Shown here: positions 26,192-50,100 of the stretch, one piece after another | How positions within the stretch are numbered: the first letter of the stretch is position 1 | How the letters are laid out: every line of letters starts with the position of its first letter | NCBI RefSeq assembly: GCF_964204645.1 | Contig: NC_134028.1 | Location: 8,494,001 to 8,558,000 of the forward strand | Direction: 5' to 3' | DNA from: Tubulanus polymorphus | Taxonomy: Eukaryota; Animalia; Nemertea | Length of the DNA stretch: 64,000 nt | The notes under the pieces: generated by a model | What the model saw: the letters and a program-made list of their open reading frames with translations, nothing else | What the model was told of the DNA's origin: nothing | The model's database searches: none | Program-made: the position numbers and the translations under genes

Positions 26192-29100
26192 ATGGCGGAT
26201 TTCTACGATATCCGTCTTGCTCGAATTATCGTACTTGGAATATCATTTATGTTGATGTTCACTGCATTTCAAACATGCTCTATGATCGAGGTATTTAAAG
26301 TTAATCTGTTCTATCCATATCACTTGAGATTTGTTGATGACAAGTGGTGGAATGGTGGTTTATGTGGCTAAAGCGTGCAGGCCGGTTTAGTAGTCTGAAT
26401 ACCAGTCGTTGCGACAGTTGTTTGGGGCACAGGGACTTGTCACATTTGATAGTGAATGAATAAAACCAGTATCAATGACCAACTCCAGTATCCCTGTATG
26501 ATAAAAAAAACTAATCATCAATCTGAAAATGACCTCTCCACATCAACCTCCTGTAATTCCGTAATACTAATGCAGACACACTTACCAACAAACTCCACGA
26601 ACTCCATTTGTTTGTAAAGATAACCCGGACATGACGATATCGGAGGTTCATCCGAAAAATTATCCACGTAACTGCATAGGTGTAAGTAATTAGAAAAGTG
26701 GGGTTTCAGATCAGAGGGCGAGAGGGCGAGACACCACTCATCACCACAAGTAATTTTTTTTTCCTACTCATCACCACAAGTAATTTTTTTTCCTTATAAA
26801 TGGGGGAGAATGAACACCAGCCAGAAAACAATAATGTCAATAAAAATCAATATTATTGCCAATATTGTAAAAAATACATCGATACATCTCATAAAACACG
26901 ACATGAAAAAACTGCAAATCATATAAAAAATGTAATAGATTTTGAAACTCCAGAAAATTCTAATGAAAGAAAAGAACGATTAGAAAATATGAATGTGGAT
27001 GAAATAAAATGTGAAGTTTGTAACGAATTTATAGTAAAAAGGAATTATAATAGACATCTCGAATCACAAAAACATTATAAAAATTTAAATAAAAATGTTT
27101 TAGGATTAGAATATTTTGATAATAAACCTCAACAAGTAAAAGAATCAACTTCAAAAACAAAATCTATTTCAAATAAACCTTACATGGAAAATGTTAGAAA
27201 TTATATTGATTCACTAGAAATAAAAGATACAATTGAAATCTTAGAAACATTACATAGTAAAATTGGTCCTGCAGCTATTATATTTAGATTTTTTAAAGGT
27301 ACAACAATAGAAGATTATAGTAAATTTAATGAAATAATAGAAAAAATACTAGATTTGATAACAGATGTTGAATATCCAAAAATTAGTATCTCTGGGAAAG
27401 TAAGTTTTATAAAGTCAGAAGAAAAAATGAATTATAATATTCAAACACTCTCTGAAGAAATAATTTCAAAAACACAAATAAAAGAGAAGTTAGAAAAAAT
27501 ATTAAATGAATTTAAACGTCATATTGAAGAAAGATATTTTGAGGGTTCTGGCTTAACATTGAATGAAATTATATATTTAGATTTAAATGTTTATAATACA
27601 AAAAGGAATAAAACATCAAAAAGTAATAAAATGTTTAAAAATGATTCAAACTTTACAACAGAAAAGGATATTAAAGCATCATCTTATATTAAATTACCAT
27701 TTATAACAAAAGCAGTAATAAATATTCAAAATGAAGATAATAAATGTTTTCTATGGTCAATTATTAGTTGCTTACATCCAACACAGGAAAATGTTTGTAG
27801 AATAACAGATTATCGGAAATATGAAACATTATATAAAATTGATCAATATCCAGTAACTATAAAAATGATTCCTAAAATAGAAAAAGTTAATAATTTAAAA
27901 ATAAATGTATTCGAATTAATGCAATTACCAAAAACAAAAGGTGAAAATATTAAAGATTATACATTGGAAGCTTTATATTTAACAGAATATTATGATGATG
28001 AAAATGCTATAGATTTGTTATATTATAAAAAAGATGAAAATGAACATTATATGTGGTTAAAACAAATTGATTTATTCTTTAGAACAACAGAAAGTGATCA
28101 TCATCGTAAAATTTATCTATGTAGAAAATGTTTGTCTAAATTTATGACTGAGAATACATTATTAAAACATAAAGAATTATGTGATAATAAAGATTTTTGT
28201 AAATTAATAATGCCAACAGAAAAAGATTATAAATTGAAATTTACTAATCATAAATTTAAAAATATTATTCCATTTGTAATTTATGGGGATTTTGAATCGT
28301 TGAATAAAGAATTAACTGATCAAGATAGAAAAGAAATATATAACAAAAAGCAATTATTAAAATCAATGGATAAAGGAAATGAATTAAATGAAGACACAAT
28401 ACAAGACCCGCCAATTATAAATACAATTAAAAAAGTTCATCAAAGAGCTGCTGCTTATGGAATTTACATCAAATCAAATTATCCCGAATTATATGAAAGT
28501 CAATATATTTCTTTTAGAGGTGAAAATGTAGTTAATGATTTTTGTGATAAAATGATTGAATTAGAAAGTGATTTTACAAAATTATTAAACAAAAATAAAT
28601 GAATAGTTATGACAAAAGAAGATGAAATTGATTTTAATTATGCAACTCATTGTTGTTATTGTGAAAAACGTTTTTATTCATTTGATAAAAGAGTTAGAGA
28701 TCATGATCATTTGAATTCAAAATATCGTGGAGCTGCTCATGAAGATTGCAATTTACAAGCTAAAAAAGTAAATTTCGTACCAATATTATTTCATAATTTA
28801 TCAGGATATGATACCCATCTATTTATAAAACAATTATCGGGAAAATTGGGAGCAATTAATCAAGAAATAGAAGAATATAATGCTATGAATGAAGCAAATG
28901 TAAGAAAATATGATTTTAAACTATTAGCTAAAACATCTGAAAATTATATTTCATTTCAATTTGGTTGCATTAGATTTTTAGATTCTTATAGATTTCTTGC
29001 AAGTTCATTAGATAATTTATCAAAAAGTTTAGTTGATAATGATTTTGTTATAACTCGATATTATTATCCAAATGAACAAGATTTTAAATTATTGAGATAT

Positions 29101-32100
29101 AAAGGTGCAATTCCTTATTCATTTTATAAAACACATGATGATTTTAATGTAACAGAATTATTAAAAGATCAATTTTATGATCAATTAAAAGAGGAGTATG
29201 TGAAAGACGAAGTTTTTAATAGAACATTAAATATTTGGAACCATTTTAATATGAAAAATCATGGTGAATTAGTTGATTTATATTTAAAATCAGATGTTAT
29301 GATATTGGCAGATATATTTGAAAAGTTTAGAGAAGTTAATCTAAACCATTTTAATGTTGACCCTTGTTATTGTTATTCAAGTCCTGGTTTAACCTGGCAA
29401 TGTGGTTTAAAATATACAAATGTAGAATTAGATTTATTAAAAGAACCAGATATGGTTTTATTATTTGAAAAATCAATTAGAGGTGGAATTAGTGGTGTTA
29501 TGGGAGATAGGTATTTTAAAGCAAATGATGAATATAAATTATTATATATTGACGCTAATAATTTATATGGTTGGGCAATGATGCAACCTCAACCATATAA
29601 AAATTTTATATTAACAGAAGTTGAAAATGATGATAAAACTGATTGGGAAAGCGCAATTACGAGTTTAAAAGATGAAGCGCCAATTGGTTATTTCTTCGTT
29701 GTAGATTTGGAATATCCCGAAAATATAAAGTTTAAAACAAGAAACTTGCCATATTGCCCAGAACATTTAACCGTAGATGATAGTTATTTAAGTGAATACC
29801 AGAAGAAAGTAAAACCGAAAGATCATGTTTTTACGGAAAAATTAATACTTACTCAAAATAATAAATACAATTATATTGTTCATTATAGAATGTTAAAATT
29901 TTATCTAAAACAAGGAATGAAATTAAAGAAAGTACATAGATATATTGAATTTAATCAATCGAAGTGGTTAGAAAAATATATAGATTTCAATACTCAACAG
30001 AGAACCATATCAAAAACAGATTTTGAAAAAGATTTCTTCAAATTAATGAATAATAGTTTTTATGGTAAAACATGTGAAAATATTAGAAATAGAAATGATA
30101 TTGAATTAGTAAATAATTCTGAAAGATTAAGACATTTACAATCAAGTCCTAGACATTTAGGAAATAAAAGATTTGAAGATTATTTAACAGCAGTTAAATT
30201 AAAAAGAACATCAATGAAATTTAATAAACCTATATTTATTGGTTCGACTGTTTTAGAAGTATCAAAATTATTAATGTATGATTTTTATTATAATGTTTTA
30301 CAACCACTTTTTGGAGAAAAACATATAGAAATATTATATTTTGATTCTGTAACAGCTGACACCCCAATATTATTAAAATACAATAACCAAATATTGGTAA
30401 GAAGAATTTCAGAAATAATTTCAAAACAAAATGAATGTTATATTTCATATGGTGAAAAAGAATTAATGCAAATAAATGGATTAATGGATGTTTGGACAAG
30501 AAATGGATGGAAAAAATTAAAGAATATTATTAGACATAAAACAAATAAGAAAATCTATAGAGTTAGAACTAAATTAGGATTTGTAGATGTAACAGAAGAC
30601 CATAGTTTAATTAAACGAAATGGTGATGAAATAAAACCAACTGATATAAAAATTGGAGATGAAATTATTACATAAAAGATTTTACCCAAGAATGAATCAT
30701 ATGTCATTTGATGAAATAATTGATAATATTTATAATATAGAACCTGAAACATTGGAAGAAAAAGAATATTTTATCAAAGGATTTTTCATGGGTGATGGTT
30801 CAGCAGGTGTGTATAAATATGTTAATCGCAATAAATATTGTTGGTATTTATGCAATCAAGATTTGAAATTATTAGAAAGAATAAAGAAATTTTGCGAAGA
30901 AGTTTATTCACATAAAACATTTAGAATCATGGACCATATGAAATCATCCGCGGTTTATAGAATATTTGTAAATAATCCTAAAGATTTTGCTACAAAATAT
31001 AATGATGAATTCTATATTCATGCAATAGTGAAAAGTAATACTTCAACTAAAGAAAAGATAGTTCCAGATTATGTATTAAATGCAAAAAATAATTTAAGAA
31101 AATGGTTCTTCATTGGATTCTATGCTGCAGATGGTTCAAAAAGTTTCAAAAACCACAAAACAATATCCTTTGCTCAAAAAGGAAAAGTTGCTATATCAGG
31201 ATTAAATATATTATGCAGTTCATTAGGATTTAATATGAATATAGAATTAATTAAATCTAAACCAAATTGTTTTAATTTAAGGCATGTAGAAAAAGAATTA
31301 ACAGAAGAAGTTAAAGATTTATTTGAAATATATAACCCAACTGACTATGTTTATGATTTATCAACAGATGACGGAACATTCAATTCTGGGTTCCCATTAA
31401 TCCAAAAAAATACTGACAGTTACATACTAAAAATCAAGACAAATGATATAACAAAAGACTTAAAAACATTAAAACATCATTTTGATTTTAGCAATTATCC
31501 CAAAGATCATGAACTATTTAGCAATGATAATAAAAAGATTCCTGGTAAATTTAAAGATGAATTAGGAGGTGATGAAATGATTGAATTTGTTGGGATAAGA
31601 AGTAAAATGTATTCATATAAAACTAAAGAACATGAAGCTAAAAAGTTAAAAGGAATAACAAAACATGTGGTTGATAAACATATAGAATTTCAAGATTATA
31701 TAAAGTGTTTATATAAATCAATTGTAATGAAACACAAAATGAATTGTTTAAGATCAGAAAATCATGAAATGTATATAAATGAAGTTGAAAAAACTAGTTT
31801 AAATCCATTTGATGATAAAAGGCATATTTTAGATGATGGTATAAAAACATTACCTTATGGCCATTAAAACATAAAATCAATATCATCAAACTCGAAATCA
31901 CTATTGGCTTCTTCATTTTCATTTAATTGTTCAGGTTCTTCTTCAATTCCATTTTTCTCATTTAAATAAATTTCTATCTTGTTCCACATTTCATCTCGCT
32001 CTCTTTGTTTCTTTTTGTTTGTTAATTCATCAAATGGAATTATAATATCTAGGTTTAAATAATTTACAATCTTATTTAAAAAGAATTCATAATTTATTGA

Positions 32101-35100
32101 ATCTGTTATTCTATTTTCCAAATGATACATTAATATTTGTTTAAATATTTTTTTTATATTTTCCATATCTTCTTCTGTTAATTTAGGTTTTTCATAATAA
32201 TCGTTAAATAATAAATATAAATACATTTTCTTTTGTTTTGTGTTAAATGTTGACGGAATAATTGTTTTTATAATATCTTTTTTAGTTATTTCACCATTTT
32301 TATTTTCTATTATTTTCATTTTTTCAAGCCATTGCATATATTCTGGTGTATGATCTTCTATAGAAAATATTTTAAAAATTTCATCTAGATAATTTAATTT
32401 TGGTTCTATGAGAAAATCTCTAGTTTTTTCTTCACCCCATAAATTCTTTTGCCATCCACATTCAACACAAAATAACACAGCACCTTCTTGTCTTAAGGTC
32501 GCATAACTACATTGTGGGCATTTTCGTTTATAATTTATTGGTAATAGATCTTCATTAAGCTCTTGGTATTTTCTTACGTTTTCTTTATGTTTTATTGTTC
32601 TATTATGTAGATTTGAATTACTTGTTGTAATAATCAATTTACAATATTTACAATAATATGTTTTTCTTGTTAATTCATTATATTGTTTTTCTAACTTTTC
32701 AACTGTTTCTTTATTATCTGGTAACGTTTTCTCATATTTTATTTTTTCTAATAAATTATTTTTTCTTTCATTGAATTCAGTTTCAAATTTATTAGAAATT
32801 TTATCTATATGTGCTTTACGAAATTGATGATTCTCCCAATCTTCTATATTTTCAGGGTTATATTTTATTCGACAAGGCTCACAGAAATGATCTTTTATAT
32901 TATCCTTATCATAGAATAAGAAAGGTCTTTTCCAAATAACTTCAGGTTCAACTTCGGCAGATTTACTATCAACATTAGCCGTTGCGCCATTAATTCTACA
33001 CTTCTCTGAATGTTTTTTAACATAATTTCTTGAGAATAATTTATTACATTTTGGACAGTTTATTTTAGGGGGTTTATAATTTTCATCATGTTTTTTCATA
33101 TGTCGAGCCTTATTACTTTTTCTTAGAAGTTCACCACAAATTTCGCATGCTATCTTCTCTTCCATTTATTAAGGAAAAATTTTATTAAAATTAATTTTTA
33201 GTGATGAGCGGTAATTTTTTTATGTTATAAATAATGGTAGAATTAAAAGAATACAGAATATTTGTAGATTCTAGAAGACTTACAAATTATAAATCTCATA
33301 ATTTATTAATACAATTAGATAGAGAATTTAAGAATTGCGTTGATTTAAAATTAGTAAATATTAGTTTATGTAATTCTTTTTACAATGTAACGGATAAAAG
33401 TCTTGAACATTTAATTTTTTCAATCTTTTATAAAAAAAGGAATAAATGGTTTTTTATATATTTAAAACCAGGATTATATAATTTAAATACATTAGCACAA
33501 GAAATTAATAGAAAAGCTCGAGCTAAATTAGGAAGTGATTCTGGATTTAATATTAGAATTTTAAAAAGTGCTAGTTCTAATAAAATAAAGATTAGGTTAG
33601 ACGAACAATTTAAATTTACAGTAAGAAAACCTTTAGGTAAACTGTTAGGAATTGCCCCAGATATTGTTACAGCATACGCAGAAGGTAAATCAAACTTAAT
33701 ACCTTTTACACACTTTTATATTTATTGTAATTTAATCGATCCTACAAAAACATTCGAAGCAACTAAAGATATAACTTGTAATTCTGGTTTACTAAACATT
33801 TTACCATTGAAGAATGTTAAAGAATTTGGAACGCAAATAAATTATAATTTAACGGAATGTGATTTCAAACCTTGTATTCCTCAATTTAATAATTTTAAAT
33901 TAGAAATAAGAAATCATAATGGATACTTAATTGATTTGAATAACTTTCCTGTAATTTATGAATTAGTTATAAGATGTAAAGAGTAATTTTTCACCTATAT
34001 AAATGAATATAACTGTTGGACCGAGTATATGTTTTGGTTTTGATTTTAAACGTGAGAAAGAAATGAAATTTAATATGAATGATGTAATTACACATATCAA
34101 AAATATTGCATTTTCTAATGAAACAACATTTGAGTATGAAACAACAATAGATAAAGAAACTTTTAATGTAGAAAAGATTACTAATTTAATTAGAGAATCT
34201 TTAAGATTTTATGAATTAGATGAAGATTTTATAATCGATGATATCAAAAAAATAATAATTGAAATATATACAAATGAAACTAGTAATAAAATAAATGTTG
34301 AATTAATCATCACTAATTTAACTAAATATTTTGATGATAGTAATTTTTTTGATTAATAAATGAGTGATAATAAGTGGATAATAACTGGATTATATAATGG
34401 AGCATTACTATCAGTTGGAACTGTTGGTTATTCAATGGTATTAAAAAAAGTATTCAAAATGGGAAGTGTTAATGTTGATAGATTTGATATAAATGATATT
34501 CTAAAATTAACATTAGCAGTTACTTTATCTAATTTAACAATTGATTATTTGGAAAAACAAAAATATATTCCCCCCATATAAATGTATAATTTTTTTGCTA
34601 AATAAATGGCTTCTGCAATTATAACTATTATAGGATCAGCAATCGTTAACGCTTTAGCATTTACTGGTGGTGGATATTTATTTAAACATATTGATAAAAA
34701 TAGTTCATTAGGAGAACAAAGAAGACATAACTTAGCGTTAGAGAAATATAATAAAGATGCAGAAGAATATAGAGAAAAGAGACAAAACTATATGGATTAC
34801 ATCAATAAAGAATTATATGATCAGAAGATTTCACATAGAGATTTTCAATCAGTCGATGATGCAATGAGTTTATATAACGCGGTAACAAATAAAGAAAAAT
34901 TACATCTTTACAAACCTAAATTATCAGATTATTATACCCCAAGTAAAGAACAACAGAAATATGAAATAATATGGATTTTAGGTGGAACAGTTATTGTTAT
35001 ATTTGTTGCTTATAAGTTTACTAATTAGTAATTTTTTTTCTAAATAAATGGAAGATAAAGTTGATAGTATTGATATTATTCCTCATGATATAAATAAAAC

Positions 35101-38100
35101 TAAATTAAAAACATATTTAAAAAAACAAATATTAGAATTTGAAAGTGACTTAAAGATAAAAAAGAAAAAATATTTAAAAAGTAAAATTATATATTATCTT
35201 ATTATTAGTGGTTCGGTTACAATTAGTTCTGTAATAACATTTCTAGCAATATTCAGTCCATTAACACCTTTAGCTATATCAATTGGTGTATTAGGATTAA
35301 GTTCAAGTGTTTTAACTGGTATAAGTTCAAAATTAAATATAAAAAGTAATAAAGAAAAAATAAAATCTAATATAAAAGAAATTAATAAATTAAAGAATAC
35401 ACTAGATTATATAATAAGTTTAAATGGTCATATAACAGTTGAAGAACAAGATAAATTATTAAAAGAATTAATAAATTATTAATTTTTTAATTATATAAAT
35501 GGTAGAAAGTTTTCCAAAAACTTTCCGATATAATAAATCAATTAAATATAATATTCCAGCAATAGATTTTAATAAAGATATTACATATAGAAATGAAGTT
35601 TTAAATTCATTAATTGATTTATATATTTATGTTACTGAAAGTAATAATTTTAATGCAAAGATGGAAAATATATTTCATGTATATTTAATTAATTTTAAAA
35701 AATTGAAAGATGAAAAACAATGGTTATTAAAATCTAATATGAAGTATTGGCAGAACCAATTAAATTTTGCTGTTTATTGTGCAACAACAGGATGTGGAAT
35801 AAGTTGGAATGATCATTTGAATAATTCTAAATATAAATTAATTCAAAGTTTATTTAGATTTCATACATACTTTCAAATCAGAATAATATTAAATGAATTA
35901 GAGTGCGCTTTACCAGGATCTAGATATTTTAAAGAATTAGATAATAATATTAATTTATCAAAGTTTTATAAAATTTGTAATGAATTTAATATAGATATAA
36001 ATAATTCTGATTTTAGAATAAAAATTGGAACAATAAGATCACTTCCATGCCCTAGAAAGATTGCAGAATATTGTGCACTTCCCATACCATCTAATAGCTT
36101 TTATAATATCTATAATAAAAAATTAGGTTATGGTAAAATAGAAACAAAGGATTTAGAAACATTAAATTTCAATAAATTACCGAAATTTTATGATAATTTA
36201 AAACAAGAAAACAATAATGGTTGGGTTTATTTTATTTTAGAAAATAGTGAAGGTTTTACTAAATCAGGTATAGAAAGAATAAATCAATCTATTAGAACTT
36301 ATTTGATTTGTATTCTAGGATCACAAGTTGAAACAAGATCACCGATAATTGGAAATTTGAATACATCATTCGATACACAAAAACAATTCAAAGTTTTATT
36401 TGAAGATTCAATTCATAATGATAAAAATAGATCGATTCCAGAAAACATTATAAGATATCAAAATTATTTAGATAAATCTCATGTAAGACTTAATTATTGT
36501 ATAGGCCCTAATCTATTAATTATTTCTAATGATTTAGTATTAAAGATGGGAAATATAATTGGTTATAATAATCTAATTAAAACAGCAACAATAAATAATT
36601 CATTTGGATTAAATGATATAAATAAAAAGATTATTACTGCTCCAAAATTAATGGAAGGTGAAAAAAATAAAAAACACATTCAATCAACAGAAACTAAAAC
36701 TAAGAATATTAAATTGGTTAATGATTCCAAAATAAAAGATTACAATACATCAGAAAATAATAGAACTAATAATATTCAACATGATATAATTAAACTAAAT
36801 GATGATAATAAATCACATGAAAATACTAAATTAGCTATAACTTGTATAGGAATTGTAATCGGAGGAATATTATATTTTAAATTTTAATTTTCTTTATTAT
36901 ATAAATGGAAGTAGAAGGTGTAGAAGATATTGGAATGGATCCTTTTGATAAACCTGGTATAACTGATGAACAACCACCTAATTTTGATGAAACAAGTTTT
37001 AATGATGGTAATGAAACAGCATATAATTCTAATTTAACTACACCCCAATTTATTGACAAAGCACGTTCAAAGATAAGTATTGAAAATGAAGTACCAGAAA
37101 TAACAGAAAAAGAATACAATTATAATGAATTTATTAATGATTTTAAACCTTTATTTGAAGAATCTGGTTATAATATAAATGAAAGAGGCGCTAGACTTTT
37201 AGTAAAAGATTTAAAATATTTAGATGGTGAATATTATTATTATTTGGATGGTGATAATTTAAATGGTGAATTTTATATTAATATCTCTTATAAAAATCAA
37301 AACAAAATATTAGCAGAATCAACTTTGATTAAGTTAGAACCAGATAGAATTAAGAGAATAAGTAATAGTAATGAAATAACTGTTGTTACACAAGAAGAAA
37401 TAGATCACTTTAAAAAATTATTTAAAAAAAGAATTAATGAGTTATTTAACAAAATCTATGATAATTTAGAACCAGAAATGGAAGAGAATAGAAATCGATT
37501 AGATAGATTGAGATCTTCAACACCCGAAACATCGAGAAGAGACACTCAACCAATTGATAATGATTCAAGTCAATTACAATTACAATTACAATTAGAAAAA
37601 CAAATTAATAGATTAAGTGATTCAGAAGAAGAAATGAATAGTACTGGAATAAATCGACTGCAATATTTACTAGAAAAAGGATTTCTTAATTTAACTGATG
37701 AAGAATTAGAAGCATTTCCTGAACAAATACGTAGAGAAATTAAAGGTATACAAGTATCAGCTGATGAAATTGCTAATATTAAGATGAGATTTTCTAAAAT
37801 AACCATGTTAGAAAAAGAATTAACTAATGCAGATGAAGAATTAAAACAATTAGAATTAAATAGAGATCTTAATGTAATTTATGAAGCTGATTATGAAAGC
37901 AGAAAGTTAGCTTTAGTAAAAGAAATAGATGATTTAGAATATAACATAAAATTACAAAAAGAAGAAAGAGATATATTATTAAAATCATATGATCTTAATC
38001 ATATTAAAAAATTAAAAGTTATTTTTAAAGATTTGTTGATTAAACCAGATTCTGAAATATCATTAAAAGACAGAATAAGATTATTATTTAAATTAGAAGG

Positions 38101-41100
38101 AATAACAATTCTTTCAATTGTAACAGCTGTAACTATGTTATTTACAACAATTGGTTTAGCAATATCAAATGCTTTGAAATCTACTCCTACTCCCACTCCC
38201 AATAAACCAGATAAACCTCCAGGTAATAATTCTATACAAGATAAAGTTAAAGATGGTTTAAAGAAATTAGCAAAATATTTATGGGAACTATCAAAGAAAT
38301 CTGCTGCAGCTTTACCGGGAGTTATTGCTTCAATTGTTGGTTTTATATTGAAATCTGCAGGTAATATTCTTAACTTTGCTGCTGAACATATTATTTTATT
38401 TTTAATTACAGTTGTAAGTGCTATTATTTTTGGGTTAGTAAATATGATATCAAAAAATATCAAGTAAACCATGATATCAAAAAATATCAAAAAATAAATA
38501 ATTAATTTTTTTGTTAAATAAATGAGTGGGAGTTATATAAGTCCTTCGAAGAATCATAGAATATCTAATGCTATTAAAGCAGAGAGATCACATCATATAA
38601 TTACTCATAACCCTTCTAATATTAATCCCGATGAAACTTTATACGTTAGAATCCCTCGATTAACACAAAATACTTTTTATGTTCCAAACAGTATTTATTT
38701 ATCAGCCGATATAAAAGTAACTGGCCATGATAACAATTATGTTGTTGATAATGTTGGAAGATATTTGATTAAAAAATTAACTATAAAGATTGGTCCGGAA
38801 ACAGTTTTCTCATTAGATGATTATAATTTATTTATGCATTATAAAGATTTATGGTTAACTAAAGAAAATAGAAATAATATGATATTTCAAGGCATCCAAT
38901 CGGAAAACCATAATAAATTAAGATCTGAAGCCAATAATGCAGTAGTAACTCGTGCCACAGATAATTTGATTAAAAAGATTTATGGAAGCAAATATAAAAT
39001 TCCATTAGACTTTGAATTGATAAATAATAATGCACCTTTATATAAATACGCAATTCAAGAAGATATTATATTTGAGATAACATTTGCTCCTGTAAATGAA
39101 ATTGTATTATCTAGCGTTGTTAAAGATATGGGTTATAAATTATCGAATATATGTTTAGAATATAACACAGTAACTAATGAAAATATTGCTAGCACAATTC
39201 AAACTCAATACAATCAAGGATTTTCATTATTATATGATTATATTGATAAATTTAAAACTGTAACTATTAATGCAAATGATGAAATAATTAATGAGAATAT
39301 TAACTTTCCTAGAAGATCTATTAAAGGTATATTAATATTTTTTACTATTGCAACATATTCTAATGGTGCAATAAATGTTGATAATTATTATAATCCTGAA
39401 ATAACAAAAGTAGAAATAACTATTGAAGGTATAGCGAATAAAATATTTTGTCAAGGAATGAGAATGATAGATCAATGGGTAGAAATTAAAAAACATTTTA
39501 TGAATGAAAAAGTAAAATCATTTGAAAATTGTAATATTAATCAAATTGATTATTATACCGGTAATAAATATGCATTATGGTTAGATTTTAGAACAACTGA
39601 AGATAATTCATTACATGGTTCTGGAAAAAAACTACAAAATACAAAAGATGGAATACAATTATTCATGAAAAAGAATAAAGGAATCAAAAATTTTAAAATG
39701 CACATTTATATTATATCTGATGCGCAATTAAATATTGTAAATTCACAATTAGATAGTATTCAATATTAGAAATATAAAGTTAAAATTAAGTGTATATAAA
39801 TGGGTGGTAAAAAATCTCCTAATACTAAAGAACAATATTTAAGAAATTTATATTACAACCCTGAGAGTTCGGTTGCTTATTCTTCTACCAAACATATATG
39901 GCGTCAAGTAAAACAAGATAAATTAGATAAGATAATCCCACAAAATTTAGTTAAATATAAAGATATAAATGAATTTATGTTAGAACAACCAACATATACA
40001 ACACATAAAAAAATTGTTAGAAAATATGAAACTCGTAAAACTATGGTAAGTTATGTAGATCAACAGTGGCAAGGAGATTTAATTGATAGGAAAAATGTTA
40101 AGAAAGATAATGATGATTATTGGTGGTTATTGAATATAATTGATATTTTTAGTCGTTATGTATGGAGTTTCCCACTTTATAGAAAAGATGCTGCACAAAC
40201 ATCACATGTTTTAAGAAAATTTCTTTCGGATGATAAACTAAAACCAGAAAAAATACAATTTGATGATGGAAAAGAATTTGATAATTCACTTGTTCATGAA
40301 CTCTTAGATAATCATAATATTAAATATTTTTCAACAAAATCAGATAAAAAAGCAGCAGTTGTTGAACGATTTAATAGAACATTAAGAACAAGAATGTGGA
40401 AATATTTTACAGCAAATAATACTTTTAAATGGATTGATGTTTTACCAAAATTGATAGAAGGATATAATAATTCTTATCATTCTTCTATTGGAATGAAACC
40501 TATTGATGCTAGAAAATCTGAAAATGCTGAAATTGTTTGGAATAATTTATATGGAGCATTTCTTATAGATGATTTTGGTGAACCTAAATTTAAAGTTGGT
40601 CAAAATGTTAGAATTTCTAAGTATAAAAAGATATTTGATAAAGGATACGATCGAAATTTTACTAGGGAAATATATAAAATAAAAAAGGTAATAACAACAA
40701 AACCATATGTCTATAAATTAGAAGATTTAGATGGTGAAGAAGTTGATGGATATTTTTATGAAGAAGAATTAAGTTTAACTACTGAAAATCTAGAACAAGA
40801 ATATAAAATTGAAAAAGTATTAAAAACAAAAACTATTAAAAGAAAAAAATATTCTTTAGTAAAATGGGTTGGATGGCCAGATAAATTCAATGAATGGATA
40901 TTATCAAGTAAAATTAAAAATATATAAATGAATAAGGAATTACTCATATTTGAGCCTCATAATATGTTAATTTCTGGTGTAACAAATTGTGGAAAAACTT
41001 ATTTTATATTACATTTATTAGAAACTGTTTATGAAAACTATTTTGATAATATAGTATTATTTTGTCCAACATATGAATTTAATCAAACTTATGATAGAAA

Positions 41101-44100
41101 TATTACTAGGAATAATAAATTTATTATATTAGATCCTAAAACAGTAAAAGAAAATTTAGATAATTGTATTAAAATAGCAATTGATATTTATAAAGGATCA
41201 AATACATTATTTATCATAGATGATTGTGCAAATTTACATGATTCTAAAATTAGAGAAAGTGAGTTATGTTATTTAGCTTTCTCTGGGAGACATTTTGGGA
41301 TAACAACTTGGGTTTTAAATCAAAAATATAATTCAATTGTTAAAGACTTTAGAGAAAACATTAGATTTCTAGTTTTATTCTACAATAAAGATAGAAAATC
41401 AATGAAAAATGCACTTGAGGAAAATGATATTATTCCACATGATTTACATAATGAATATATGGATGAGTTGAAAAATATCAAAAGATCAAAATTACTATTT
41501 AGATTACAACACCCATTTAAATATGAATTTATTTAAATTCAATTAGTTTGTTAATCTAGTTGAATTCTAGTTATTGGTAGTTGTAACAAAAATCAAATAG
41601 ATTTAACAATATTTTAACTAGCTTGTTAATCTATTTTAATTCTAGTTACATTCTAGTTGAATTCTAGTTGTTAGTAGTTGAAACAAAAATCAACTAGATT
41701 TAACAAGAAATAAATAAAAACAACAATATTTCAACTAGCTTGTTAATCTAGTTGAATTCTAGTTACATTCTAGTTAAATTCTAGTTGCAACATCACACAA
41801 TTAATTTTTTTGTTATATAAATGGTAGGTGAAAAGAAAATAAAATCTAAAAATGGTGATGTTCCAATTGAAAAAACTTTAGATAATTTAGGAATAACAGA
41901 AACAAAATTAACTCCAGATGATGGTGTTTTAAATAATGTTACAACAAATAATAATTATGAATATTATCTTTATTGTAAACATCAATTAGAAATATTAATA
42001 GCATCTGGAAAATGTAAAAATTTTGTCAGTAAAAATTTAACTTATAATGAATTAGACACAATGAAATCAGATGAAATTATTAAATTATTTAAGATTTATG
42101 AAGCCGCGAGAACAGCTAGAATTAATGACGCGATATCAGAAAATGTAGTAAAAGGTTATAGTAAATTATGTAATTATATACTACCAATTGAAGATGAAAA
42201 TAGATTATATTCCGATTTAAAAAATGATTATTTAGTTATGACTGAATTAAATAAATGGATTGGATATTTATCATTTCAATTAGGTGGATTTATGACATTA
42301 TTATCAACTGGAGTTATAACATTTTCAAATATTGAAAGTAAAAATATTTCTATAATAAATGAGCGAGGTGAAAGAAGTGAAGGAATTAACTGTGAAGAAA
42401 AAACCGAGAACTCAGAAACAAATTGAATGGTCTCGACAATTAGGAATTAAATCACAAGAATATAAAAAAGCTGTAAAAGAAAAAATAAGTAATAAAAATG
42501 TTAATAAAAATGGTGAAAATATTGTTATTTCTACTCCTTCTGATAGTAGAATATTTGATAAATATTTATATTTTACAGTTGGATTTGTAATTGTATTCAT
42601 TTTGATTGGGTGTAGTTGGTATAAGAAATCAAATAAAATTCATAATATTAGTAATTCTGAACCAACTGCTATCAAAAATGAAAGTACTTCTGAAATTCCA
42701 AAATTGATAATAAAAAAAATGGATTAATATTTTAGAAAAAAAAGTAAAAAAAATAATTAAATATCTCACTACTTTTGTCTATCTATGTGGAGCAATTAAA
42801 TTGTCCAGATAAGTCATTTCGGATTCTAGATATTCATTATTTTTATTAATTTATTTTGTTTTTATTTGAATATTTGAATTTGAATTTGTTAATCAATTAA
42901 CATAGTAATTGATTACTAATTTGATTAAAAATTATATCATAATTAAGTTAAAAATACATAATTCATTTATCAGTTTTCATTCTTACATTCTTTTCATTTG
43001 GAATAATTTATAATTTCAAATTTCACATATTTTTTTAACACCAACAACATTTACTTAGGTGTTTTAGCTAAGTATATAAGGCAATTCATTCAACCACTGG
43101 AGTAGCTCTAGCCAGCAGAGGCATTTTGAAAATGCACCTTCGTCCACTCTCTGGGTTTCTACTTCGGTTTCGAATTTCGAGATTGGTAGAAATTACATTA
43201 GGCGCCTTTAATATAATGTGATTTCTACCAATCATTGAAGGAGATCCCGGTTGATGTGGGTCTCCGGGGGTGTAAGTAGAAATGACGGGGGATAAGCGTC
43301 CCGTGGCGCCTTTCAATAATGGGATGCTTATCCCCTGAAAACTCTGTAGGTCGAGGATAGGGCAATTTTGCTAAAACTTACCGTAAAAACATTGAAATAT
43401 TCCTTTTAATCACGAGAGAATGATGACTATCCTCCTATCGTCACAGCTGAGCTAATTTAAATAAACCTCGTTTTCAGCAACTAATGAAAACGCAGTAATT
43501 CGATACCAGCTAACTGGTTTGTGTGTGTTGTATGTACTACGTGCTTATTATAACAACAACGTTGTGCAACACCTGTTTGATTGATCAATATTCAAATGAA
43601 GCACTCTCTTATAATAATATGTAACAGATGTACTGTATGATTGTAGTTGTTTATAAAACGACTAAGGTCATTTTGGATTCTAGATATTCATTATTTTTAT
43701 TTCTTATTTAATCAACAATTTCTAAATCATGATGACCGTCTTCATTTTTCCCATGATATATTATTTTAAATCCTACTAAATCTTTCAATTCCTCCGTACT
43801 CAATGAAACCCATTTATCGGGTAAAAACACTTTAAATTCTCGCGATGTACTAACATTACAGTAGCTTAAATTAGCTGATACTTTCTCTCCATATTTAGTT
43901 TTTATCTTTTCTAATTTCAATATTTTATGTTCAATTTCTTTTGTAACATCAACTAACTTTTTTATTTCAAATTGTTTTTTTGCTGGTTTTATTCTGTTAT
44001 TTATTGTTGCTAAGAATGCTTTTCTATCTCCCATTTATTAGGAAAAAAAATTACTTGTGGTGATGAGTGGTGTCTCGCCCTCTCGCCCTCTGATCTGAAA

Positions 44101-47100
44101 CCCCACTTTTCTAATTACTGGTGTAAGCGTTTATTTTACGAAGCACCGTCAACGGCGGAAGAGTAGTTATTATCTATGTGAAACACGGTATTGATTATTG
44201 CGAACTCTTATCATATGAAGTAACCAATGATAATCTTTGGATAAAATTAGAAAACTACAACCGGGGTGTATCTACTGAAGCCCTAATGCATCCATCGATG
44301 AGAGTAGGGAGATTTGATTTATAAGATGTCAAAAGAGATACGCCCTATGCCGAAATTATTATCTGTGGAGATATGAATTTTTATCCTGAGATAGACTGGA
44401 ATGAGATGTCCACCAAGTTAGGGTTGCCAACTGCTCCGGAAAGATTCGTGATTATTTTCTCACCCAGCACGTATAGATCAACCAACAAGGCACCGTGCAA
44501 ACCAGCGTAGGTCACGACTGTCAACATAAGGCACCCCTTCTGGGAGCGAAGACCACGTCATTATTATTTTTAATCTCAATTGATTTTAATGAACTTCCGA
44601 GGAGTGTTAATGTATGAAGTGGTGAACCTACGATAAAGTGAGGGACGAAATGTGTAAACAAAACTCATTTGACTGTCAAATCAGTTTTGTTTTGACAACT
44701 CGTCAGACAGCTTATCAAGCTTGGATGTCACATTTAGCTGATATTTAATTAGAGATTCGATATGTGATCTAACCAAAAGGTTTGTACCCTGTTATAGAAT
44801 TACCCATGAGCACGACGAAGGTAAAAAGCCCATTTGGATGAATGCCCCGGCTCTAAGGAAAGTTAAAATGAAACACTACAGAGAGCCTGGTAAAGGTATC
44901 TCACCACCAAGAACGGTAAGTTTAACAAATTGTATCAACAAAAGAAACTTTGCGCGAAGAGAAATAAAAAGAGCCGTCAGATTGTACGAAAAAAAACTAT
45001 CGTGAACAAGGTTAGAAAAACCCTTAGGCATTCTGGAGTTACATGAATACTAGATCTAAAATCAAACAAAAAACAGACATACCGCCTTCGGTTTCAACAA
45101 CGGTTCGATACTTTCAGATGACAAAGAGATAGCTAAACTATTTAACACCTTCTTTAGTCGCGTGTTCACGGAGAAAAATTTGACGAGCTTTCCCGATCGA
45201 GCACCGAAGGTTTTAGAAAACATAAGTAATATTGATATAGATGCCGAACTAGTATAGAAACATTTGAATAACCTAAATATACAAGAGCCCAGGCCCTGAT
45301 ACTCTCACCGAGAGTATACTCGGGGAACTGTCCGTTGAGCTTTGTTTACCTTTGGCGATTCTTTTTGAAAAATCGCTAAAACTATGGTCACTTACCATCG
45401 GACTGGAAAATTGGTCTTATAATGCCTATCCTAAAAAGGACGAAAAGACGAAGTTAGAAATTACCACCCTGACAATTATCAGGCATACAACAATGGAGCA
45501 CTTAAGATACATCGATATCCCCTGCACAACATAGCTTTGTACCCAAAAAGGAATTGTCAGACCAACCTGTCAATGTCTCTTGAGAAATGGACCAGTAAAC
45601 TCGACCGAAAAGGTATGGTTGACTCAATTTACATAGACTTCGAATAGGTGTTTGATAGGGTACCTCAGTGCCACCAACGTTTGACAAGGAAACTACGTAA
45701 TATGGGTATAGACGGCAAGGTCTTAGATTGGATATCAGATTTCCGAAGGAAAAAACCCGAGCGTGACTTAAGCATTCCGCGTTATTGAACTTCGTTTTGT
45801 GAATAATATTAGGCGGCTCCGAAATGTTCTCGGTTATTATCAGGATATCTAATTTTATGCGCTCTGCGTGATATATGCATTTTGCTGAAGACCCGTGTGA
45901 GTTATCCTGTAACATCTTCTGAACAAACCAATGATGATCGTAAATGTCAATAATGAATGTCTATCACGTCCACGATTCCCCGGTCTCGGCACATAAGAAA
46001 AAGATACAGTAAACCTTGCGTAAGTCGTATAATCGCTTATATAGGATGAATATTGATGGTCCCGAATTTTCCTTCTTTTTTCTAATAAATTAACATCCCA
46101 ATATTTCCTCCAATTCAAAAGTCGGTAACTCGCCATACTCGTAGTATATCTTTTCTTGGCCCCAAAATAAAAATCAGGATTACTAAAAAAATCGAGATTA
46201 ATCACCGAAAGCCAAAGGGATATATATTCTTCCCATTGCAGTTTGATTTCTTCCCTGTTCCGACCCCTGTTTCTTGCTTGGAATCGACGATGCATTTGAC
46301 AGACGTTATTATTGTGTTTTAGAAAAATAAACCGGAAATATTTCAGTGTTTTCAAAACATTTGTTGATTTAATTTTTCCGTTCACAGAAACTGATTCTCA
46401 AGTCGTAGTTTTCGGAAAGTGGTGAAATCCGACTTATTCAACGTCAGATTTTCCATGTTGGGGGATTTTTCTTGTTCCCAAAAGATCTGACTTACACAAG
46501 GTTTACACTTAGCCTATTGGATTCTTCATGATACGACGGCTTTTGAAGTGTTGCCCGAATGCTGTAAGCAGGCAGTAGGACTTGAACCCGCTTGTCACGT
46601 GCATTATCCCCCTGAGTTATTGAAGCTGCTTAACTTTTAATAATTTGGAAAGACTGGGAAAATCCGATCTATTTCTATTGCAGGAGACAGTAATCGAAGG
46701 AGCAATAAATGAACCAAACAGTACATTCACCGGAAATGGATATACAAGGTTTTATTTGCATACGAAAAAATCAGATGTAGTCCTGCGATTCATTTTCGCG
46801 AAAAATGTGTTAAATCGAAAACCATTTATTTCAGTCTGGCGATAATTTATGTGTCACTCGCAGTGTCGAATTGGGCGGCGCCTTCGATTGTTAGCGTGTT
46901 AGGCCTCAAAATATCGATGATGGTATCTGGTGCTATTTATGCGTGGGTATTTTTATATTCTATTCAATTTTTTTGTATTAAGTTTGAGCGTTGAAGAATA
47001 AGATAGCTTCATAATAACAGTAAGGTAGTGGGTATCATGTCGACATGACAATGTTGTAACTAAAGCGTTCTTGACTGTGACGTAGTGGCAGCGATATAGA

Positions 47101-50100
47101 AAAAATTCGAGTTCGAATATTGCTAGTTCAATCAAGTCTACTCACCCTTAACCCTCAACGATTCTAATCATGAATCTAACCATTTAACCCCTTACCCCGA
47201 AACCTAATCATAGTGATATTAATGTAATTTTTTTTTATACATGGAGATGGTGGTAATGATGGTAGACTTCTCAACGAACTTTTGAGCACGTAACCCCGAA
47301 AGTTAACTCAACGGAATTATTTTAACAGTACATATACACTATCTCATTGTTGATATTTGCAGGCTGTTTATAGCGTCATTTTTGAAACCAATGACGTGGG
47401 CATTGTACACGACGTCGGTTTTGGTCGGAATCGCTGCGGCAGGTGACTTTTTTCGTCATTCAAAAATTGACTTAAAATGAAAAACACCTCAATTCTTGTG
47501 CAAATAAAAAGATCTGTCTTGATTGTATTTTTAGTGTTATGGACAGCACAAGGAAGTTACTTAACTCTCAATTCTGATCCCGATACGATCGCAATTACAA
47601 GTGGAATTTTCTGGGCATTGTTTCAGTGCAGGTGGGTGCCCTAAAAGATTCAAATTTTCCTATATTCAAACTAAGGGGAGCTATGTTTTCCGGTTACTCT
47701 TGATGAGATGAAAATGACGATAATGATGATGAAAGAATATACATGTATAGAACTAATACTATCAGTTACCCAGAATACCAAACTTACTTTTCCATGAGAG
47801 TCGGGCTATTCGATTGAAACAAATACAATGCCTATATGTTACCAGAATTAATGTAATGACCGTCGAATGGTTAAGCACCTATGCTCTTACTTGCTTCACG
47901 TAGGTCAGCATTCAAAAAGCGATTAGATTTTTGTGTTTTTCTTTTATCTTCCAGTTTGCTGATAGGAAACGTGTATGTTTATTTTACGTTCAAAGGCGAT
48001 ATAACAGTGGACGCGGCGACCAGGACTACGTTATTTTTAGTGTTTACAGCAGTCTGTGTGGCGGGCGTTTTGTTTCTCGCGATATTGTTCTGTTTGAAAG
48101 GTCGACAAGAGACCAGTGTGGAGTCTCTAGTAGTTCCGATAAATCAGGGGTAAAGTAATTTACAACAGGGATTTCATCAATGCGCCATTTGAAAATCTTT
48201 TAACCCATAGATTACTGCGAATTAATTTCAATTATTCCGAAAAAAACTTCAATCAATCTTGTTTTCAAGAATTTTGATTTTCTTCGCATAGACGCGACAT
48301 GATATAAGCTCGTCAGGTCTATATGAGTGTCTTAAGTCTATACTCTTACACGGATATTCTTGTCTAATACTCTTTGTAAGTGGTATAGAATGGCGAATGT
48401 CGGCAGCCTTTTAGAAAATTGGGATGTTGATCAATGTTCTAATGGGAGTAGTGCTAATCCCCGATGCTCAACTCTGTATCCAGTCACTTTAGTCCCAACC
48501 CTATCATGTCTGTACAATGTTGTATTAAGTATTTTGTGTGCTGTTTTCAGTGACGGAGAAAACCGGGGAAATGACGGGCCGTTACAAGCGCTTAGTAAGT
48601 TCAGAATCGATTTAGAATTCTGTCAAAATTTAGTTTATCTTTTTTACGGATGCCTTGTGCATAATTGATTTTAATCATCCGTTTACAGAAGGGTTGTTCC
48701 ATTTGTTTATTACAAGAGACATTTTATTGCTGTGCGTCACATTTGGATTTACAGGTACCTGTATTAATCTAATTCATAGGACTAGACTCGTCAAACTTCG
48801 AATGCTTCTAGTCCGATATTCACTGTACTACGCGATACTGTATAAATTATGATTTCGATGCGCCATACACCACACTAATGGTGGCCGATTCAGACAATTC
48901 GTACCGTTATGAGAAACAACACAAGACACCATTTCGTTGCTTGTGTCGTGGTGATTTACGAGTAGATACCCAAAAAATGGCGCCTGGAAACTGTAAAAAG
49001 GCTTATTAAGCCTTTTTACAGTTTCCAGGCGCCATTTTTTTATAGTAAATCACCATGAGACAAGCAACGAAATGGTGTCTTGTGTTGTTTCTCATAACGG
49101 TACGAATTGTCTGAATCAGCCACCATTATATTGTATATCGGGAGCTCAATCACCCCTGATTACTGGGAAAATACTCAAATATTCCTTCCAGAAACACATA
49201 ACTGTTAGTGTGGTGTATGGTGCATCTCTGATTAACAGAAAAAATCTCTTGACTGTCCCCTGATGTGGAGAGCTGTTCTTATTGTTTTCTACCTCATTAC
49301 AGGTCTTTCACTCACATTCTTTAGTGGTGTTTATGGTACATCCGTCGGTCATTCGAAACGATTTGGTACCGATGCCAAAGGCCTGATCGGAATTTGTGGA
49401 ATATTCATCGGAGTTGGTGAAATTCTAGGTATTTTAAAGCTTATTAATGTTAGAAAATGAAAAGATGATTGTGCATAAACTTGTTTAATGGGGATTTTAG
49501 ATATTCGAGCAAATTACATGCAATTGCACCTACACACGTGTATGTACGTTAATCTTGGGAGGGTTTAACATTAACCACGATAAATTTGGTCTCGTAAATA
49601 GTTGACAGTTACTAGGCTGAAACATAATTGAGTCACCGGTAAATCTTCGGTTAATCTAAAACAGGCATGTGAATCTGGCTGTATGATTACTGAACCTGAA
49701 AATTCGTTACTGCAAAAAGTTAGCAGCGTGTACATGTATCATGTATGAACCTGTTTTCGTGCTCTGTGCAAATGTAAATTTTTTGTGGAGCAATAAACTG
49801 ATTGTAATTGTAAAAAAAATCTAAGCGCTCGGTTAACCATGTAGCTGCTTCATTTTCCAACCTGGCAGATTTACTTGTAGCAATGATTTAATTCACTACA
49901 ATTTTTAATTTTTTACACAAGGTGCTGCTCTGTTAGGTTTATTCGGCAAGTGGATTAAACGATTTGGTAGAGATCCCATTGTATTGTTCGGTTTCCTAGT
50001 AAACATAACGGCGTATTATCTGATATTCTTAAATCTTCCACAAATGTCTCCCATCGAAGAAACTGATGGTGCGGTTTATGTGGACTTCGGGTAAATGTTC

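Follow-up and report, generated by a model that had tools for sequence, protein, structure and literature searches.

The closest described relatives of the locus reported here are the Maverick/Polinton elements (Polintoviricetes), among them the adintoviruses (PMC8502044) and the elements of groups 1 and 2 (10.64898/2026.06.19.733378). The locus lies in a stretch of 64,000 nucleotides of the nemertean Tubulanus polymorphus (assembly GCF_964204645.1, contig NC_134028.1, positions 8,494,001 to 8,558,000), hereafter the window, in which positions 26685..44119 form a Polinton of 17,435 bp. It shares with other Polintons the size, the terminal inverted repeats (TIRs), the 6-bp target-site duplication (TSD), a family B DNA polymerase that is protein-primed (pPolB), an rve integrase and an A32-type ATPase, together with a probable double jelly-roll capsid and a multi-copy state in an animal genome. 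It differs from them in a clade-restricted motif of the poxvirus late type at nearly all gene starts, in a LAGLIDADG intein in motif C of the polymerase and in that a protease was not detected. Virions of Maverick-Polintons have not been observed (10.64898/2026.06.19.733378). A single clade-specific motif of the vaccinia late type makes it testable by which route Polintons are transcribed and whether a helper is required.

Mavirus and the Cafeteria provirophages (10.1101/068312) also integrate through an rve integrase, carry pPolB, TIRs and a TSD, are AT-rich, lack an RNA polymerase and have one late-type motif. Mavirus uses helper promoters and is activated by CroV (10.1101/068312), and PgVV uses helper promoters and is supported by PgV (10.1101/2022.07.28.501842). 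In the case of mavirus, the motif matches that of its known mimiviral helper, silence and reactivation have been demonstrated, and the host is a protist. In contrast, the window element has an animal host, a pox-type motif, its own VLTF3-like gene and a helper that is only proposed. Next, the Polinton-like viruses associated with entomopoxviruses (PMC11296320) are proposed to parasitise poxviruses in animals. An earlier reading of the window, made from sequence only, had named them as a known parallel, and such viruses are indeed described there. They differ from the window element in having a tyrosine recombinase or no recognisable integrase, in their highly divergent capsids and in coming from occlusion bodies. 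Promoters, TAAAT, VLTF and inteins are nowhere mentioned in the main text of that paper.

The vaccinia late promoter consists of TAAAT, usually with a G so that it overlaps the start codon, and of a conserved T at the tenth base upstream, among other Ts (PMC11980589). Late initiation within TAAAT involves slippage and yields poly(A) leaders (PMC6211774), and the conservation of the TAAATG-type signature reaches down to the salmon gill poxvirus (PMC4542343). The window element shares with vaccinia late transcription (PMC11980589) and with pGKL (PMC6211774) the TAAAT(G) over the start codon, the T about 10 nt upstream and an A2-like factor. Poxviruses and pGKL2 have their own RNA polymerase and early promoters, both of which are missing from the window element, where in addition zinc fingers are joined to the A2-like domain.

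The motif TAAATG is found at 14 of the 15 gene starts of the element, which confirms the count made from sequence only, compared with 40 of its 666 other ATGs (Fisher p 1e-15) and 9 of 87 spurious short open reading frames (ORFs). At the sole exception, the gene starting at 33234, TAAAT is shifted 3 nt upstream. Across the 15 starts the A at -4 and the T at -14 are invariant, within a TAATTTTTT-like block, and a T stands 11, 10 and 9 nt upstream of TAAAT in 15, 13 and 12 starts, respectively. This T block matches the T-run that the earlier reading cited for the vaccinia late promoter. Both sequence features of poxvirus late promoters are present, namely a TAAATG that overlaps the ATG and, about 10 nt upstream, a conserved T in a T-rich block. 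Furthermore, AATTTT, a sub-motif picked after inspecting the starts, lies upstream of 11 of the 14 TAAATG starts and of none of the 40 internal TAAATG. Within the element there are 11 instances of the pattern AATTTT.{4,14}TAAATG, and none in 46.6 kb of flank. The promoter-like block is also built into both TIRs, directed inward at pPolB and at a 108-aa ORF. The polymerase, the integrase, the capsid and the VLTF3-like gene all stand behind this single motif, with no early class visible. The T at -3 is the opposite of the Kozak preference of animals.

Other interpretations of these signals were tried and rejected. A trans-splice acceptor was discarded, as AG lies at most 12 nt from the ATG in only 7 of 52 starts of the relatives. 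A TATA box is discounted by the overlap of TATAAA with the ATG, and stop-start coupling by the fact that the TAA is the stop of the upstream gene in 1 of 12 pairs here and 1 of 33 in relatives. Depletion of TTTTTNT was dropped as a sign of pox early termination, since T/A homopolymers are depleted generally, controls included. As for AATAAA, it is undepleted in the coding strands of the element (78 observed, 69 expected), which leans, weakly, to non-nuclear transcription.

Relatives were obtained by scanning metagenome contigs with an alignment of the major capsid protein (MCP), giving 24 loci, and their starts were scored by a blind ORF rule, leaving out the fragment L024. TAAATG is present at 52 of 61 starts in the 15 loci with 51-76% MCP identity, whereas the four loci with 44-47% have it at 0 of 12 starts. 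With near-duplicates dropped, 13 loci remain in the first group, with TAAATG at 47 of 56 starts, versus 0 of 5 in the 44-47% loci. Four short distant loci have it at 0 of 5 starts, the near locus L014 at 0 of 2, and spurious short ORFs of the relatives at 21 of 314. A T at -12, which is 9 nt upstream of TAAAT, occurs in 49 of the 52 starts. The motif is retained at 36-44% GC (7 of 9 starts in L006-L008) and through gene reshuffling among the relatives. Head-to-head pairs have 19, 28, 28 and 30 nt between their ATGs in L002, L009, L010 and L011, with a TAAATG for each gene; L009 and L010 are related. At such distances (19-30 nt) ordinary 5' untranslated regions have no space, and ordinary leaders made by RNA polymerase II (Pol II) are hard to accommodate.

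In a quick MCP tree of 47 rows, the motif-bearing loci form one group (SH-aLRT 96), with the motif-less L015 outside. As judged from these sequences, the motif marks a Polinton clade, with a thin control set. The promoter-like anatomy proposed earlier is upheld in a stronger form than first claimed, as it is clade-specific, kept at higher GC and through reshuffling, and found in both TIRs. Other scans, of viral contigs with element-type queries and of genome contigs, gave no relative. Lastly, relatives of the MCP at 55% identity (cluster P0046) occur in several Bartonella assemblies, on contigs of 0.5-1.6 kb, and are probably eukaryotic contamination.

The possible transcription factor of the element is a 433-aa protein encoded at 31864..33165 on the minus strand, with a TAAATG start, in which N-terminal zinc fingers are fused to a divergent VLTF3/A2-like domain. 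The domain covers about residues 205-410 and is modelled as a Zn ribbon with a cyclin-like helical fold. In the ESM Atlas it has a score of 0.96, with 27 of 30 matches in Pox_VLTF3 clusters. A phmmer search of 1.84 billion proteins gave four matches, three of them uncharacterised proteins of the same type and one a 226-aa protein with Pox_VLTF3 and an A2L ribbon (E 2.6e-5), the one Pfam-recognised VLTF3 reached in this way from the window domain. A profile built without this Pfam member scores it at 51 bits. The 226-aa protein shares 63% identity with the A2 gene on a viral contig of 232 kb with 18% GC, MSV199 repeats and an NAD ligase, a contig that we ourselves read as entomopoxvirus-like. 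The structure model (pLDDT 74.5) was made from a five-row alignment that includes the 226-aa VLTF3 protein. It has 15 Foldseek matches at E <=0.001 in BFVD (best E 2e-7), among which the VLTF3 of cowpox, MSEV and DlEPV rank 1, 3 and 4; giant-virus VLTF3s rank lower (6-50).

Direct searches were blank for this ORF. There was no match to Pfam PF04947 at E 0.1, which the three closest relatives miss as well, and none in NCBIfam or in a word-index homologue search. A PDB sequence search gave nothing significant, and Foldseek against PDB gave nothing at E 0.001, with weak rows for Rap94 and TFIIB. By the sequence comparisons and the model, ORF 31864-33165 is best described as a divergent VLTF3/A2 homologue, VLTF3-like and not a Pfam member, with poxvirus proteins ranking highest. 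The homology claimed by the sequence-only reading is supported indirectly, by the Atlas, the phmmer chain and Foldseek, and has no direct Pfam match. An absence of VLTF3 similarity in profile or structure searches, named beforehand among the conditions that would refute the idea, is not what was found (Foldseek E 2e-7, phmmer E 2.6e-5). The relative L001 carries a homologue of this gene, also with a TAAATG start. Head-to-head with it, at L001:10343-10981, lies a deoxynucleoside kinase gene (Pfam dNK, E 2e-31) with its own TAAATG.

Raw DNA reads of the same species, from 12% of one run and with a 90% identity cut-off, were mapped over 28 bins inside the element and one flank bin, the right-hand 1.3 kb and the right junction being outside the mapping. 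Depth was about 175-870x in 27 of the 28 element bins, compared with 11x in the single flank bin; the exceptional element bin had 26x, and the tool flags skipped repeats there. At the left end (26685), 258 reads depart into diverse sequences. From this depth and these varied junctions it follows that tens of family members are scattered over many sites, most of them with 1-10% divergence. Only 2,604 of 48,278 reads are at least 99% identical to the window copy, and at the frameshift of its polymerase gene 175 of 222 reads do not have the shift. The window locus is best seen as a single integrated member, with a defective polymerase gene, of a Polinton family that has many copies.

Depth over the VLTF3-like gene was about 220-260x, approximately one third of that over the adjoining structural genes (about 770-870x). 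At 33233, immediately before the probable minor capsid gene, 303 reads diverge from the window sequence, and the structural block beyond has about three times the depth. Family members with a different left arm thus have the structural module in common with the window copy. The drop in depth, together with the 303 departing reads, suggests that many copies are without the VLTF3-like gene in the form seen in the window. Separately, at 26766, 451 reads connect the promoter-like block of the TIR to another terminal sequence, so there seems to be a second subfamily with the same promoter cassette and other termini. In the window copy, a 29-nt piece of the promoter cassette is duplicated at the left end.

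As for the intein, it lies at 30346..31411 on the plus strand, in polymerase motif C (Y-x-D/TDS), has a LAGLIDADG domain and is frameshifted in the window copy. It matches TIGR01445 above the cut-off, has an N-terminal Ser and a C-terminal Asn followed by Thr, and sits at a conserved motif. Animal genes are not known to contain inteins. Its C-terminal part, searched against longer proteins, has six matches, namely two pPolBs (60% and 48%) and four RNA-primed PolBs (31-37%), of which one, P0165, is archaeal by NCBIfam. The label "Mimivirus-like", given to it earlier, did not hold, the best matches being these two other Polinton-type polymerases. All six relatives carry the intein at the same site. 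Its identity to the Polinton relatives (60-67% and 47-50%) tracks that of the flanking polymerase (57-60% and 43-46%). Since intein and extein identities are alike, inheritance fits, and the intein is, as far as sequence comparison goes, an old passenger within Polintons. For the same reason it was rejected as a sign of recent helper contact. Homing-endonuclease insertions in Polinton pPolBs have been described as likely intein invasions (PMC11071308).

Further observations concern the wider intein family. The motif-C family is common to the archaeal-type PolB P0165, to giant-virus-like polymerases and to Polinton polymerases, and the RNA-primed PolBs that share it sit on contigs of 19-68 kb. 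The same intein is present in P0162, a cluster of 136 sequences that includes a 657-kb contig, so that many copies of it are probably present in another eukaryote genome.

The reading that we favour, with about even confidence, is that this Polinton family lives as virophages do, its genes being transcribed by an RNA polymerase that a poxvirus-like cytoplasmic virus brings in during co-infection. RNAs would start inside the AAA of TAAAT and gain a poly(A) leader by slippage, as in vaccinia. Since polymerase, integrase, capsid and VLTF3-like gene share one motif, with no early class visible, an outside trigger would be needed. The A2-like factor of the element could supplement or bias the late complex of the helper. 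Incoming particles would integrate by the rve integrase, and many germ-line copies would thus arise. The first access of a nuclear copy to a cytoplasmic polymerase is a step that the model does not explain. Of the support offered earlier for such a pox helper, the promoter anatomy and the A2-like homologue stood, and the intein did not. If the reading is true, virophage biology extends to integrated animal elements, and these elements mark unknown pox-like viruses. A broader version is more doubtful, namely that all members of this clade of animal Polintons are endogenous virophages of poxviruses, silent in the germ line behind pox late promoters and with a captured poxvirus A2 factor that biases the helper polymerase. 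If it holds, the clade marks undiscovered poxvirus-like viruses in these invertebrates, together with a mavirus-style inducible antiviral system in animals.

Several points weigh against a pox-type helper. To our knowledge, no poxvirus of this host is known. The VLTF3 similarity is remote (28% over 199 aa, and 14-20% for the top four Foldseek matches), and the folded alignment held a bona fide VLTF3, which may have biased the ranking. The best solved chain is TFIIB, with Z 6.8 (93 residues, rmsd 3.5), below the trust threshold of the tool, followed by cyclins; a protein with such a predicted fold could work with Pol II. The intein, by its sequence relationships, points neither to a pox helper nor to recent giant-virus contact. 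The loci without the motif that served as control represent only some two independent elements, and in L025, an entomopox-like locus, 9 of 20 starts have TAAATG, preceded by alternating AT instead of a T run. AATAAA has an observed/expected ratio of 0.77 (not significant) in ten higher-GC relatives and 0.61 in controls, with 11 motifs tested. Lastly, mriyaviruses keep VLTF2 and VLTF3 without an RNA polymerase (PMC11253617), so VLTF3 alone implies no viral RNA polymerase, and coral polintoviruses are transcribed in ordinary colonies (PMC11131425).

The main rival, which we consider less likely, is an autonomous nuclear virus that would need no helper, its TFIIB-like VLTF3 homologue directing the Pol II of the host to the TAAATG starts. 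The mriyaviruses are thought to be nuclear (PMC11253617), TFIIB is the top solved-chain match of the model (Z 6.8), polintovirus genes are expressed in coral colonies (PMC11131425), and the family has tens of divergent germ-line copies. However, the VLTF3-like gene stands behind the same motif, so its own first expression would require that Pol II can already use that motif, and many copies are without this gene in the window form, by the depth of about a third and the 303 junction reads. In addition, the head-to-head gaps of 19-30 nt allow no templated leader, and the overlap of TATAAA with the ATG means no ordinary TATA box for these starts. If this account were true, a nucleocytoviral VLTF3 would work with Pol II, which bears on the role of VLTF3 in viruses without an RNA polymerase. 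Another account keeps the helper and replaces the poxvirus by a different cytoplasmic agent with a pox-related polymerase, either another nucleocytovirus or a linear plasmid of the pGKL type. Yeast pGKL has a TAAAN initiator, poly(A) leaders by slippage and a pox-related RNA polymerase (PMC6211774), many other giant-virus VLTF3s match the model (ranks 6-50), and RNA-primed PolBs on contigs of 19-68 kb have inteins of the same family. It is nevertheless improbable, given that a T block followed by TAAATG across the start codon typifies poxvirus late promoters, deep to salmon gill poxvirus (PMC11980589, PMC4542343), and that pox proteins rank first by sequence and by fold.

A shade less probable again is a relic, in which the promoters would come from a helper-dependent ancestor and the present copies would be passive fossils with no helper left in the host. 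The polymerase of the window copy is broken twice, and few reads (2,604 of 48,278) reach 99% identity to it. Yet the TIRs are 100% identical, the TSD is intact, no ORF outside the polymerase gene is disrupted, the frameshift is missing from 175 of 222 reads, and the motif is conserved in relatives at 51-76% MCP identity. The least probable account is that the motif is no promoter and instead a translation signal (a stop before the start, or stop-start coupling) or an effect of AT composition. The TAA is an in-frame stop directly before the ATG, integrase and ATPase abut as TAA-ATG, and the element is 76% AT. However, just 1 of 12 neighbouring gene pairs in the element, and 1 of 33 in relatives, have the TAA as the stop of the upstream gene, and the motif also heads terminal and divergent genes, has a T block at a fixed distance, and is still present at 44% GC.

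In terms of novelty, VLTF3 has already been reported in a subset of stony-coral polintoviruses (PMC11131425), and its presence in Polintons is traced to Krupovic and Koonin 2016, as cited there. The passages searched in PMC5499653 and PMC10748475 name neither VLTF nor inteins. A literature search found no description of pox-type promoters in Polintons, within a coverage that excludes subscription journals and supplements, and a search for Polinton and intein gave no such title among the matches listed. The clade-wide promoter system is real and apparently undescribed, in a known kind of element, and its helper is putative.

The element is bounded by perfect 77-nt TIRs at 26685..26761 and 44043..44119 (100% inverted match) and by the TSD GGTGTA at 26679..26684, with the same 6-mer beyond the right TIR at 44120..44125. 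Past the left TIR, the inverted match runs on through the promoter-like block of pPolB to 26807 (95% match). With TIRs, a 6-bp TSD, pPolB, rve integrase and A32 ATPase, the element has the features of a Polinton/Maverick (Polintoviricetes). The interior has 24.0% GC, compared with 33-45% in 1-kb flank bins, and a CpG observed/expected ratio of 0.59 versus about 1.0. ORFs are tightly packed and introns are not evident. A Pfam scan of the 17 element ORFs found no RNA polymerase family. The very low GC and the apparent lack of introns and of an RNA polymerase, noted from sequence only, are confirmed. The same scan found no maturation protease (adenain-type cysteine protease), several ORFs being without any family. 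The description as a complete element holds for the TIRs, TSD, integrase and ATPase; it does not for pPolB, which is split over three ORFs, for the protease, which was not found, or for the capsid labels, which rest on weak Pfam matches and position.

The pPolB gene is damaged twice, by an in-frame stop at 28600-28602 and by the frameshift within the intein, and all other ORFs are open. Its first piece (26800..28602, plus strand, as are all genes below unless stated) has a TAAATG start, zinc fingers and N-terminal domains, ends at the in-frame stop, and is 32% identical to the N-terminal part of the intact pPolB P0161. The second piece (28609..30675) covers an endonuclease-VII-like insert, the exonuclease/palm region and the N-terminus of the intein (PF03175 E 5e-21, TIGR01445 E 5e-8); it has no TAAATG and is no gene of its own. 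The same goes for the third piece (30659..31867), with the C-terminal part of the intein and the C-terminus of the polymerase.

The 250-aa ORF at 33234..33986, where TAAAT lies 3 nt further upstream, is a probable minor capsid protein by its position. All genes that follow have a TAAATG start. The 415-aa probable MCP (38522..39769) has 923 homologues and a weak match to Capsid_N, below the cut-off, in 7 of 32 aligned members; PDB sequence searches gave no significant match for it or for the minor capsid candidate. The rve integrase with a chromodomain (39800..40927; PF00665 E 3e-10) is followed by the A32-type packaging ATPase (40928..41536; PF04665 E 3e-13), whose TAA is the stop of the integrase. 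Between the ATPase and the next ORF, at 41540-41800, lies a non-coding stretch of 11-nt tandem repeats of the TCTAGTT type, a possible origin or protein-binding array.

Among the smaller genes, a 117-aa ORF without assignment (34003..34356) has a homologue in L001, and a 73-aa hydrophobic ORF (34360..34581) in L001, L006, L007 and L016. They are followed by a 140-aa ORF with both ends hydrophobic (34606..35028) and a 144-aa protein with two transmembrane segments and a weak SLATT match (35048..35482; E 0.0055). The 462-aa ORF (35499..36887) has homologues in L001 and L008 and no assignment; it has no ESM Atlas match, and its structure model is unusable (pLDDT 30). The 520-aa coiled-coil protein with a hydrophobic C-terminus (36905..38467) may resemble the adintovirus GasderminX/PZ class. 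The 201-aa ORF (41821..42426) has no assignment, and the 122-aa ORF (42359..42727), with a single hydrophobic segment, starts within it. Finally, the 108-aa ORF (43708..44034, minus strand) faces inward from the promoter-like block of the right TIR and has an L001 homologue.

The flanks carry Tmem26, MoaC, RING and UNC-93 genes, which mark the host as an animal; it is probably an invertebrate whose genome is compact. About four tandem copies of an UNC-93-like gene occupy 17400-64000, the second interrupted by the Polinton. The element lies between two conserved blocks of that copy, so the insertion is probably within an intron. The Polinton is also nested in another repeat (26428-26684 and 44120-46600), with 589 loose read ends at 26428. 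The right flank (44120-46600) contains frameshifted pieces for which Pfam is blank, and whose motifs resemble those of the endonuclease and reverse transcriptase of a long interspersed nuclear element (LINE). Lastly, a small palindromic element resembling a miniature inverted-repeat transposable element (MITE), with 84-nt arms and inner 34-nt arms, is found at 48876-49128.

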